A stretch of DNA of 5,226 bases. Source: a virus (Duplodnaviria; Heunggongvirae; Uroviricota; Caudoviricetes). Of the stretch, positions 1 to 5,226 are shown one piece after another. Location: positions 1-5,226 of the IMG/VR virus record IMGVR_UViG_2693429676_000014, one strand, 5' to 3'. Both the position numbers and the translations under genes were made by a program. A model generated the notes under the pieces. It was given only the letters and a program-made list of their open reading frames with translations, was not told the origin of the DNA and did no database searches. Each line of letters starts with the position of its first letter. Within the stretch, counting starts at the first letter, position 1.

Positions 1-1170
<1,170 letters not shown>

Positions 1171-1206
1171 TGGAGCACCTGTGTTGTTCTGAGGTGAGCA
1201 TATCAC

Positions 1207-1242
1207 CTCTGTTCAGGTGGCCAAATTCAGTGTGCCACTTCA
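1207..1242. repeat. IS911 left terminal inverted repeat (~36 bp)
   Basis: Reverse complement begins TGAAGTGGCACACTGAATTTGGCCACC. It sits just upstream of the orfA start, and baseplate-gene sequence begins immediately after position 1242. Confidence 0.85.
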
Positions 1243-2609
1243 TTTCTTCACTCTTTTCTGCATCTTCAGGTATCAATTGGCGCGATAATCTTTACGACGC
1301 TTCATTTCGTGGCGTTCCGTTTTCGGTGGAGAGCGACGAGGGTTCGTTCGGACGCCGCGTTCAGGTCCATGAATACCCAAACCGTGACAAACCGTACACG
1401 GAAGATCTCGGGCGTGCCACGCGACGGCTGACGATTAATGCGTATCTCGTTGGTGATGATTACGCAGAGCAGCGCGACAGGCTGATTACAGCGATTGAAA
1501 CCGCCGGGCCGGGGACGCTGATCCATCCGCAGTTCGGTGAAATGCAGGGCTGTATTGACGGGCAGGTGACCGTTTCTCACTCCGGCACTGAAGGCCGTAT
1601 GTGCCGGGTTTCATTTCAGTTTGTTGAGAGCGGGGAACTGTCATTTCCGGTCGCCGGAGCTGCAACCGCCAGAAAACTGGAGGAGTCGTCCGTATTCCTG
1701 GATGAGTTGATTGAAGACATGTTCGGCGATTTTGATCTCGCGGGAATACCGGACTTTATTCAGAACGATGTTATTGCCCGGACGACCGATATGCTGGGAA
1801 CCGTTCAGACAGCTTTCAAAATGGTTAATTCGGCTGTTTCTGCCGGAGCGAGACTACTGCAGGGCGATTTATCCGTCATTCTGATGCCGCCGTCGGTTGC
1901 CAGTGATTTTGTGCATACGTTGCAGGATACCTGGCGGGCCGGAACCCGGCTGGTGGATAACACACAGGATCTGGTGCAGTCCATAACGACAATGTCCGGC
2001 ATTACGCTGGACCCAGGACTGGCACCGCGTGCGGTGTGGCCCACAGATTCCGCATCGGTTATCAGGCAAAAACAGCAGACAAACCTTGTGGCTGCTGTCA
2101 TCCGGACGACGGCAATCAGCGAAGCCACAAGGGCGGTCACTTCACTGCCACAACCCGGAAGCCTGGTGAAAAATCAGCAGGCGGTTGTGGCTGTTGGTGG
2201 TTCCACTGAACGTCAGTCCGATATTATTCACGTTTCTCATCCGGCACTTGACAGCGTGGCAGCCAGCACAGGACAGGATGAGAGAGCGCAACCACCCACG
2301 CGGGAAAATCTCACCATCATACGCGAATCGCTGAACGCGGCGATTGAACAGGAGCTCAGGCGTACGGCGGATGACAGGCTGTTTTTTCAGCTGACGTCAT
2401 TACGTACAGAACTGAACCGGGATATTCAGGCGCGTCTGGTTCAGACGGAGGAAACCGCAGAGCGAACGCCAGCGGAAGTTCTGCCTGCGCTTGTTCTGGC
2501 TGCGTCATGGTACGACGATGCGTCCCGTGAAACTGATATCCTGGATCGAAATGCCATCTCTCATCCGGGCTTTGTTCCGGTCAGGGCATTAAGGGTACCC
2601 GTCAGATGA
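1243..2609 (+). pseudogene. Mu N (gp43)-like DNA circulation protein, 5' end separated from its start by the IS911 insertion
   Basis: The conserved N-terminal motif ...INWRDNLYDASFRGVPFSVESDEGSFGRRVQVHEYPNRDKPYTEDLGRA... (DNA circulation N-terminal domain) begins about 12 codons after the IS end. There is no in-frame ATG, GTG or TTG between the junction (1243) and that motif; the first is a GTG at 1326, inside the conserved region. The ORF-track protein (1170..2609) takes its first 24 residues from IS911 sequence. The frame is otherwise intact to the TGA at 2607..2609. Confidence 0.75.
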
Positions 2610-3682
2610 ATGATACCGTTTTACTTCGGGTTTCCGGTCGCGAATGGGGCGGCTGGACATCCGTCCGTATCAGTGCGGGCATTAACCGTATTGCCCGGGA
2701 TTTTAATGTTGCCATTACCACCCGCTGGCCCGGAAGCCGGGATTATCAACCCCGGATAAAAAATGGTGAGCTGGTTGAAGTGCTTATCGGGGATGAGCCT
2801 GTGCTCACCGGATATGTGGAGGCACTACCGCTTCGTTATGACGCCAGCAGCGTCAGCATGGGAATTGTCGGGCGAAGCAAAACAGCCGATCTGGTTGACT
2901 GCTCTGCTTTGCCACTCCAGCAGAGCGGAAAAAACCTGCTCAGAATAGTCAGTGAACTGGCTGCGCCATTTGGCATCACCGTTGTTGATGCTGGCGTGCC
3001 GCAGACAGCGGTGATTGATGCCCAGCCGGAACACGGCGAAACCGTTGCCGATTGTCTTAACCGGTTACTGGGGCAGGTTCAGACGCTGGCTTATGACGAT
3101 GAATGCGGGCGACTGGTTCTGGGAAAACCCGGAACAGGTAAAGCGGCGACGGCGCTGGTGCTGGGAGAGAATATTCTTTCCTGTGACACGGAAAGAAGCA
3201 TCAGAGAGCGGTTTTCTGAATATCAGGTCAGTGGGCAGCGCCCGGGCAACGACGATGATTTTGGTGAGGCCACCATTGCCGCAATACGTCAGACCATTCA
3301 GGACAGTGGCGTGACCCGTTATCGCCCTTTGTTGATTCAGCAGTCAGGCACAGCAACGACAGCAACCTGTAAGGCCCGTTGTGAATTTGAAGCGCGCCAA
3401 CGGGCTGCGCTTACCCGTGAGACAACATATACGGTTCAGGGCTGGCGGCAGGGCAGTGGCGCGTTATGGCGTCCGGGGTTATCTGTCATCGTTTTCGACC
3501 CGCTGAATAATTTTGATAATGATGAACTGGTGATCGCAGAAGTTACCTATAACCAGGACGACCGGGGCACGACGACTGAATTACGGGTTGGCCCGGCAGA
3601 TGCTTATCTCCCCGAGCCTGTTACCGCCAGGAAGAAAAAAATGTTGAGGAGGATTTCTGATGAACGGGTTTTCTCTTCGTAA
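2606..3682 (+). CDS. Mu P (gp44)-like baseplate hub protein (phage late control gene D family), 358 aa
   Basis: Intact 358-aa ORF. Its ATG overlaps the upstream stop as ATGA (2606..2609), with a weak AAGGG ribosome-binding site 10 nt upstream. Size and position after the N-like gene match the Mu N-P-Q-gp46-gp47 order. Family assignment is from memory. Confidence 0.85.
   Translation: MNDTVLLRVSGREWGGWTSVRISAGINRIARDFNVAITTRWPGSRDYQPRIKNGELVEVLIGDEPVLTGYVEALPLRYDASSVSMGIVGRSKTADLVDCSALPLQQSGKNLLRIVSELAAPFGITVVDAGVPQTAVIDAQPEHGETVADCLNRLLGQVQTLAYDDECGRLVLGKPGTGKAATALVLGENILSCDTERSIRERFSEYQVSGQRPGNDDDFGEATIAAIRQTIQDSGVTRYRPLLIQQSGTATTATCKARCEFEARQRAALTRETTYTVQGWRQGSGALWRPGLSVIVFDPLNNFDNDELVIAEVTYNQDDRGTTTELRVGPADAYLPEPVTARKKKMLRRISDERVFSS
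3646..3652 (+). promoter_or_regulatory. Ribosome-binding site (GAGGAGG) for the gp45-like gene
   Basis: Near-consensus Shine-Dalgarno sequence 7 nt upstream of the ATG at 3660, lying inside the 3' end of the P-like gene. Confidence 0.6.
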
Positions 3683-4193
3683 TCTGATTTCCCGGGCTGT
3701 CATCACGGCGGTGGATTCCGCCAGAAAGTGTCAGTCTGTAGGGTTGAAAATGATAGCCGGAGATCAGAAACAACACGTTGAGCACCTTGAACCTTATGGT
3801 TTTACATCTGCCGCACAGAACGGTGCTGAGGGCGTTGCTTTATTTCCGGCGGGCGATCGTTCTCATGGTGTGGTTGTGGTCGTGGCTGACAGACGTTACC
3901 GGCTGAAAGGACTGAAACGTGGGGAAGTGGCGCTTTATGACGATCTGGGACAGTCCGTTGTCCTGACCCGTTCCGGTATTGTGGTGGACGGGGCCGGGAA
4001 GGCCATAATTTTTAAAAACGCGCCTAAAGCGCGCTTTGAAATGCCAGTCGAATCCACCGCCGATATTACTGACAATTGCGACAGTGGCGGACTCAGCATG
4101 CAGCAAATGCGGCAGGCCTACAATGCCCACAAACATACCGAAAATGGTGATGGTGGCGGGATCACTGACACGCCGGATCAACCGATGGGCTGA
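3660..4193 (+). CDS. Mu gp45 (Q)-like baseplate central spike protein (baseplate assembly protein V family), 177 aa
   Basis: ATG at 3660 with a strong GAGGAGG ribosome-binding site 7 nt upstream, overlapping the last 23 nt of the P-like gene. Motifs typical of the family: RAVITAVD, LEPYGFTS, GEVALYDD. Confidence 0.88.
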   Translation: MNGFSLRNLISRAVITAVDSARKCQSVGLKMIAGDQKQHVEHLEPYGFTSAAQNGAEGVALFPAGDRSHGVVVVVADRRYRLKGLKRGEVALYDDLGQSVVLTRSGIVVDGAGKAIIFKNAPKARFEMPVESTADITDNCDSGGLSMQQMRQAYNAHKHTENGDGGGITDTPDQPMG

Positions 4194-4198
4194 AAATC

Positions 4199-4609
4199 AT
4201 GATGATTAATGTTAACGGGCGACCCGTGTCGACCGGGGCTTCGATCGACCTTCTGACGCGTGCTGTGATTATTTCGCTTTTTACATGGCGGCGTGCCGGG
4301 CGTGATGATGCACCACGGATATTTGGATGGTGGGGGGATACCTGGCCTGCGGTTCAGAATGATCGCACGGGGTCGCGTTTGTATCTGTTGCGACGCAGCA
4401 AGCTGACAAATAAAACCCCGCAGCTTGCCAGAGATTATGTCCGTGAGGCGCTGGCGTGGATGGTGGAGGATGGTGTTGCTTCCCGTCTTGATATTAACGC
4501 TGTCCGGACCGGGACAGACTCGCTGGCACTTGCCATTACCATTTACCAGCGTGACGGCAATATTCACAACATTATTTTTGATGATATCTGGAGTGAACTG
4601 AATGGCTGA
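4199..4609 (+). CDS. Mu gp46-like baseplate protein (phage GP46 family), 136 aa
   Basis: Intact ORF starting 5 nt after the gp45-like stop (ATG at 4199, alternative ATG at 4202) and ending at TGA 4607..4609. Size and position match Mu gp46. No strong ribosome-binding site, so probably translated by coupling or reinitiation. Confidence 0.82.
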   Translation: MMINVNGRPVSTGASIDLLTRAVIISLFTWRRAGRDDAPRIFGWWGDTWPAVQNDRTGSRLYLLRRSKLTNKTPQLARDYVREALAWMVEDGVASRLDINAVRTGTDSLALAITIYQRDGNIHNIIFDDIWSELNG

Positions 4610-5195
4610 CAGTCAGTTTTATCGCCCCGGCCTCCCGCAACTTATTTCTATGATCCGGAGCGATTTATTAACCCGCTTTGAGCAGGATACGCTGCTTCGT
4701 CGTATGGATGCGGAAGTGTATGCCCGTGTACAGGCTGCAGCCGTACACACGTTGTACGGGTATATCGATTATCTTGCCAGAAATCTGTTACCGGACGTGT
4801 GTGATGAAGACTGGCTGTACCGGCACGCCAGAATCAAACGCTGCCCGCGAAAAGAAGCGGTGGCAGCCCGGGGATTTGTGCGCTGGGATGGCGTAGAGGG
4901 GACGCCGGTATTGCCAGCGGGAACGCAGATCCAGCGTGATAATCAGGTGACCTTTACCACGACGGCGACGGTGACCGCAGCCGATGGTCTTCTCCGGGTG
5001 CCTGTTGTGGCAGACGAACCGGGATCGGCGGGGAATACGGATGATGGTATTGCCATGCAACTGGGAACACCCGTCAGTGGTCTGCCGTCCACAGGGTACG
5101 CTGACACCATTACAGACGGTGAAGATATTGAAAATCTGGAAATATGGCGTGCCCGCGTTATGGAACGTTATTACTACATTCCACAGGGGGGCGCA
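4602..5195 (+). pseudogene. Mu gp47 (W)-like baseplate J-family protein, 3'-truncated by an IS1 insertion at 5195/5196
   Basis: Not in the supplied ORF track. Manual translation from ATG 4602 (GGAG ribosome-binding site at 4589..4592, 8-nt ATGGCTGA overlap with the gp46-like stop) gives MADSQFYRPGLPQLISMIRSDLL...AGTQIQRDNQVTFTT...EPGSAGNTDDG...RYYYIPQGGA with no stop. The frame is cut after PQGGA by the IS1 terminus at 5196. Baseplate J assignment is from family-typical motifs (PAGT, AGNTDDG, PQGGA). Confidence 0.8.
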
Positions 5196-5218
5196 GGTAA
5201 TGACTCCAACTTATTGAT
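5196..5218. repeat. IS1 terminal inverted repeat (23 bp, right-end type)
   Basis: GGTAATGACTCCAACTTATTGAT matches the canonical 23-bp IS1 right-end repeat. Confidence 0.8.
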
Positions 5219-5226
5219 AGTGTTTT
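5211..5226 (-). CDS. IS1 transposase InsB (InsAB') extreme C-terminus; last codons plus stop only
   Basis: The reverse complement of the window end reads ...AAA CAC TAT CAA TAA, matching the ...K H Y Q stop ending of IS1 insB as I recall it, with the stop codon (5213..5211) inside the repeat. Too short to confirm independently. Confidence 0.45.

Follow-up and report, generated by a model that had tools for sequence, protein, structure and literature searches.

The window analysed here, a stretch of 5226 bases, sets an insertion sequence directly against a phage gene of the DNA circularization (N) type, and it raises the question of whether this gene still possesses a start of its own and, if not, what the loss amounts to. 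An earlier note on this DNA had proposed that IS911 cuts the N-like gene from its start codon. The window corresponds base for base to an entire draft contig of the Shigella sonnei assembly GCA_001258435.1, CXCX01000195.1, and it falls into three parts (Table 1), namely IS911, a phage tail and baseplate block (1243-5196) and the tip of an IS1. Both contig ends sit inside repeats (IS911 and IS1), and short-read Shigella contigs usually start and stop within repeats. In the phage block, N with its DNA_circ_N domain is followed by P (baseplate hub), gp45, gp46 and gp47 (Baseplate_J), the last up to codon 198; the window comes from the tail and baseplate region of a prophage remnant that is phiP27-like, has a Mu-type tail and adjoins smpB. 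We compared it with the E. coli prophages L001 and L002, with ten complete S. sonnei chromosomes (L003-L012, of which L008 is CP061367.1) and with phiP27 (L016).

Table 1. Features of the 5226-base window.
Feature	Coordinates	Strand	Basis or remark
IS911 (IS3 family), lacking only the 7 outermost nt of its right inverted repeat	1..1242	-	99.9% identity to copies annotated 'IS3-like element IS911 family transposase'
IS911 orfB, DDE/rve integrase core	2..841	-	Pfam rve E=3e-32; NCBIfam transpos_IS3 302 bits (cutoff 160)
IS911 orfA, 100 aa, HTH, reading away from N	868..1170	-	Pfam HTH_Tnp_1 E=5e-14
IS911 left inverted repeat (IRL), abutting the phage gene	1207..1242	-	terminal 5'-TGAAGTGG
Hybrid ORF, 459 aa	1230..2609	+	GTG and 4 codons from IS911 IRL, in frame with N codon 10 onward
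5'-truncated phiP27/Mu-type N gene (DNA circularization protein)	1243..2609	+	Pfam DNA_circ_N E=2.8e-36
Conserved N-terminal motif WRDNLYDASFRGVPF, start of the DNA_circ_N domain	1278..1322	+	homologue comparison, codon walk
Baseplate hub gene P (Mu gp44-like)	2606..3682	+	A-run deletion rewrites and lengthens the C-terminus
Baseplate assembly protein V (Mu gp45-like)	3660..4193	+	Pfam Phage_Mu_Gp45 E=2e-26
GP46 family baseplate protein	4199..4609	+	Pfam GP46 E=4.5e-33
Baseplate J/gp47 gene, IS1-truncated after about codon 198 of 360	4602..5196	+	Pfam Baseplate_J
IS1 terminal 30 nt, (G)GTAATGACTCCAACTTATTGATAGTGTTTT, contig end	5197..5226	.	identical to the IS1 end in L008

The left part of the window has the features of an IS3-family element, with an HTH-containing orfA and a DDE/rve orfB joined by a -1 frameshift, near-identity to a named element, and TG…CA ends with imperfect terminal inverted repeats of about 36 bp. 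The A6G frameshift motif (A AAA AAG) linking orfA and orfB lies at 913-919 on the minus strand, beginning at IS coordinate 324, which is window position 919 read on that strand, and relatives of the element carry the annotation 'programmed frameshift'. The left inverted repeat finishes at 1242, reading …GTGTGCCACTTCA / …CCACTTCA. It matches the right repeat at 24 of 36 positions; the matching positions include the initial 8 nt and the TGGCCACC block. The right repeat is present in the window from its 8th base; the outermost 7 nt (TGAAGTG) are off the contig and were inferred from the full copy of E. coli EC28 (L017).

Similarity to the intact prophages opens exactly at 1243, so that phage sequence begins right after the IS terminus, as the earlier note had read it. 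From nucleotide 26 on, N is 100% identical to positions 6001-7367 of L001 and to the gene of S. sonnei L008. The intact gene of the E. coli and S. sonnei loci begins with an ATG exactly 25 nt before the junction point, in the context …GGAGACAGT ATGGACTTACCTTCTTTACCTTCTC|TTTCTTCACTC…, and in phiP27, where the 5' end of N is divergent, the reading frame also places the ATG 25 nt upstream. The alignment with intact homologues that the note had suggested thus gives a precise loss: 25 nt (ATGGACTTACCTTCTTTACCTTCTC), or 8 codons and 1 nt, encoding MDLPSLPS and the first base of L9. The GGAGA ribosome-binding site of N and the hairpin-T7 terminator just upstream are gone from the window as well. Intact N proteins of the same clade, including that of phiP27, have 463 aa and start MDLPSLPSL|SSLFSASSGINW….

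We also considered whether N might naturally start downstream of 1243, a finding that would have spoken against any truncation. This was ruled out, as all same-clade proteins begin with MD(L/F)PSLPSL, 25 nt upstream. Shorter N homologues of other genera use an ATG of their own without counterpart here. Between the junction and the WRDNLYDASFRGVPF motif a codon walk found no in-frame ATG, GTG or TTG. The W codon of the motif occupies 1278-1280 and is preceded by the junction-straddling ATT and 11 full codons, in agreement with the distance of about 12 codons given previously. The only in-frame starts nearby are three within the IS (TTG 1170, GTG 1194 and GTG 1230) and GTG 1326, which falls in the conserved domain.

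The truncated gene is otherwise a recognizable member of its family. Its N-terminal DNA_circ_N (PF07157) domain spans positions 2-87 of the 88-position profile, P comes immediately after N at 2606, and a tape measure gene lies upstream of N in phiP27, in E. coli and in complete S. sonnei genomes, so that N holds the place between tape measure gene and P that is typical of Mu N. The N protein of Mu binds injected phage DNA ends and serves in their protection and circularization. A complete coding sequence with its own start and ribosome-binding site is absent from the window. As the IS911 end stands in place of the GGAGA site and the first 25 nt, N is to be regarded as a gene remnant or a hybrid ORF rather than an intact member of the family.

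The closest functional phage is the Stx2e phage phiP27, whose N is gene L48 (NP_543100.1) and which matches window positions 1254-5196, almost all of the phage segment, at 96.9% nucleotide identity. It has the same N-P-gp45-gp46-gp47 order, the same N-terminal motif and an N of 463 aa, whereas in the window the first 25 nt of the phiP27/Mu-type gene are replaced by the IS911 end. The complete S. sonnei chromosomes, for example CP061367.1, likewise differ from the window in having the native N ATG and no IS911 at the site. The E. coli and S. sonnei prophages carry an ORF of 160 aa between the tape measure gene and N (L001 5447-5975), which has no Pfam match and is followed, just before the N ribosome-binding site, by the strong hairpin-T7 terminator (GCCGCCAGAAATTGGCGGTTTTTTT). 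phiP27 lacks both this ORF and the terminator, and its N stands 15 nt after the tape measure gene; the ORF and terminator look like a moron-type insertion.

Taken together, the proposal of the earlier note is confirmed: IS911 sits at codon 9 of N in an already broken S. sonnei prophage and has cut the gene from its start codon. Very probably, IS911 landed in, or became joined to, codon 9 of N in one S. sonnei sublineage, with its left end facing N and its transposase reading away. The element removes the N ATG, the ribosome-binding site and the link to upstream transcription at the price of only 8 leader residues. The reading frame happens to remain open into the IS end, and a GTG 13 nt inside the IS can be read as a start.

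A contig that begins in IS911 and ends in IS1 first calls for the question of whether the junction is real. Short-read assemblers often mis-join in such repeats, and the contig could be a chimera in which an IS911 copy was joined to an unrelated, IS-flanked phage fragment. However, at least three contigs, assembled independently and by different assemblers, share the same 1242/1243 junction; they come from the two NCBI assemblies GCA_001258435.1 and GCA_013154895.1 and from the Logan assembly of SRR28621830, which was built from raw reads. Of the IS they include 1242, 455 and 77 nt, and additional samples are listed with the same contigs. The identical junction in three independent contigs rules out a one-off mis-join, and we regard the probability of an artefact as practically negligible.

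The distribution of the junction points to a young event. S. sonnei CP061367.1 is 100% identical to window positions 1243-5226, including the IS1 in gp47 and a frameshift in P, so that IS911 is the only difference. IS911 is absent from the N site in all ten complete S. sonnei chromosomes, and among complete E. coli genomes none has the junction, no match there covering 80% or more of the query. Judged from these comparisons, the IS911 event is recent and specific to a sublineage, on a background that is otherwise unchanged, and the insertion in N is a potential sublineage marker. Short S. sonnei N proteins of 262 aa, annotated as 'tail/DNA circulation protein' (cluster P0116, 91 members), were considered as further IS hits and rejected, as there is no IS in either L018 or L019. 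In L018 (CXDA01000221.1) the short protein stems from a scaffold gap filled with a run of the letter N and is no biological truncation, and in L019 the same protein simply begins at the contig end.

A simple transposition into N and an IS911-mediated rearrangement would both place the IS terminus at 1242. Target duplications of IS911 and the IS3 family are direct and of 3 bp, rarely 4 bp. A simple insertion therefore predicts a left junction …ATGGACTTACCTTCTTTACCTTCTCTTT|TGAAGTGGTCAAC… (…ATGGACTTACCTTCTTTACCTTCTCTTT|TGAAGTGGTCAACAAAAAC…), with the 5' end of N and a 3-bp TTT duplication. If the junction were instead the endpoint of a deletion or an inversion, the first 25 nt of N would have been lost or relocated together with the upstream tail genes, and past the other IS end unrelated sequence would follow. 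IS-mediated rearrangements abound in Shigella genomes (PMC7373316), and the left junction predicted for a simple insertion has not been seen, although the searches for it were of low power and used collections that lack these short draft contigs. Exact scans of genome and metagenome contig collections, both without S. sonnei draft assemblies, returned 0 matches for the right junction and likewise 0 matches for the predicted left junction with a spacer of 0-8 nt. Nine predicted junction-spanning peptides, allowing target duplications of 0-5 nt, were absent from the protein collection, where such short ORFs are rarely called.

On the other side, the ten complete S. sonnei genomes carry no IS911 copy (no match to window 1-1242) within 10 kb on either side of the site, which makes a pre-existing neighbouring copy an unlikely recombination partner. 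The right flank of the junction is unaltered, and the neighbouring IS1 in gp47 is itself a simple insertion: in L008 (10998-11775) it is flanked by a 9-bp target duplication, GGGGCGCAG. Given the unaltered right flank and the lack of a nearby partner copy, a simple insertion is probable, and a deletion or inversion is a lesser, though real, possibility.

What has N lost at the protein level? To place the missing residues, we sampled 120 full-length N homologues from the homology search and a cluster look-up. In 105 of the 120, the leader before the AS[FL]R[GN]V core has 9-19 residues, and a leader of 27 residues was found only in the phiP27 clade. The 18-19 residues that remain after the junction are about equal to, or longer than, the whole leader of most homologues. 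As 105 of these proteins manage with 19 residues or fewer, the lost residues are dispensable in principle. They are part of a variable, non-conserved leader, and the loss in protein is trivial. The insertion costs N its translation initiation rather than its protein substance.

This leads to the reading frame that crosses the junction. The N frame is open from 1155 into the left end of IS911 and onward, and GTG 1230 is preceded, 9 nt upstream, by a Shine-Dalgarno-like AGGTGG at 1215-1220. The claim of the earlier note that no usable start exists between junction and motif accordingly stands; it does not extend into the IS, where GTG 1230 lies in frame. Because of this GTG in the IS end, annotation pipelines call a 459-aa 'intact' protein. 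The hybrid product reads MCHFI-SSLFSASSGINW…, and the exact protein is present at NCBI as CSQ33161.1, OOO77071.1 and WP_052971568.1, under the label 'DNA circularization N-terminal domain-containing protein [Shigella sonnei]'. Its first five codons are the IS911 terminal repeat, yet it is annotated as an intact protein and not as a pseudogene.

The hybrid ORF might be translated from GTG 1230 into a functional N-like protein, the IS having merely swapped one leader peptide for another. The frame that is open over the junction, the AGGTGG element, the RefSeq annotation and the short leaders of most homologues, about as long as what remains here, are all in keeping with this possibility. However, a consensus scan of 900-1500 on either strand found no sigma-70-like promoter, the spacing of the Shine-Dalgarno-like element is long, and no outward promoter is known at the left end of IS911. 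The earlier reading that the element is transcribed away from N and offers no obvious outward promoter is upheld here: orfA runs from 1170 to 868 on the minus strand. In addition, partner genes of N are broken, P by a frameshift and gp47 by IS1, and the remnant is without regulators and head genes, so there is no particle in which N could act. A functional hybrid protein is therefore very unlikely.

A near-full-length N may nevertheless be translated from GTG 1230 if any transcript crosses the IS end. In the most far-reaching form of this idea, the left end of IS911 would act as a portable translation start that yields near-full-length N from read-through or antisense IS transcripts, which we consider highly improbable. 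If it held, the tail-module gene would still be expressed despite the insertion, as the RefSeq annotation tacitly assumes. With the promoter scan empty, the transposase genes pointing away from N and no outward promoter known at that end of the element, WP_052971568.1 as an intact protein is regarded as an annotation artefact rather than as evidence of expression. We infer that the hybrid ORF is without meaningful expression, and the record of this 459-aa 'DNA circularization protein' should carry a pseudogene flag.

Several lesions are shared with S. sonnei genomes that lack IS911 at this site. The IS1 that splits gp47 is common to all S. sonnei loci examined; the match of the window to L001 stops at 5196, and in L008 the gene continues beyond IS1. 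The A-run of P at 3635-3641 is A7 in the window and in all S. sonnei loci and A8 in phiP27 and E. coli. The resulting shift of -1 nt exchanges the last 7 residues (…KKKNVEEDF) for 14 others (…KKKMLRRISDERVFSS), and P then overlaps gp45 by 23 nt. A further IS1 is found within the 160-aa ORF that precedes N, in those S. sonnei loci (most of the ten) where it is annotated. No integrase, terminase or portal genes were found within 10 kb of the S. sonnei remnants. With IS1 in gp47, the frameshift in P and the IS1 upstream, the prophage was already defective when IS911 arrived. Since other lesions had already disabled it, the insertion is probably inconsequential and a matter of neutral decay in a dead prophage. 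An IS3-family element is also present in the S. sonnei copies, alongside a fragment of the head protease gene. We asked whether the IS3-family element adjacent to the sheath gene of the complete genomes is the same IS911 copy, and this was ruled out, as that element shares no similarity with window 1-1242.

A reading as neutral decay would fit the IS expansion that is well documented for Shigella. Five IS, IS911 among them, have expanded in all Shigella, and IS911 gives rise to strain-to-strain variation and pseudogenes (Hawkey et al., 2020; PMC7373316). Prophage regions of S. sonnei have homology to phiP27, and most of them carry IS elements (PMC6128377). The window resembles the Shigella IS911 pseudogene insertions (PMC7373316) in the element itself, the A6G frameshift, the TG…CA ends and the lineage-specific insertion into a coding sequence, and it differs from them in nothing of substance. 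The site at N codon 9 was not found in the text of that study, nor, by product name, in its supplements. The event is of an ordinary, already catalogued kind and routine genome decay for S. sonnei, and its biological weight is small: it adds one more lineage-specific IS911 site to the IS-driven decay of this species.

Two minor observations concern the neighbouring baseplate genes. The exact GP46 protein sequence is found in thousands of S. sonnei contigs. P contains a (GCTGGT)n hexanucleotide repeat at 3154-3159, with one copy in the window, L008 and L001, two in L004, three in L003 and four in L010, which accounts for P proteins of 358, 360, 362 and 364 aa in the complete S. sonnei genomes, and the repeat could serve as a typing locus.
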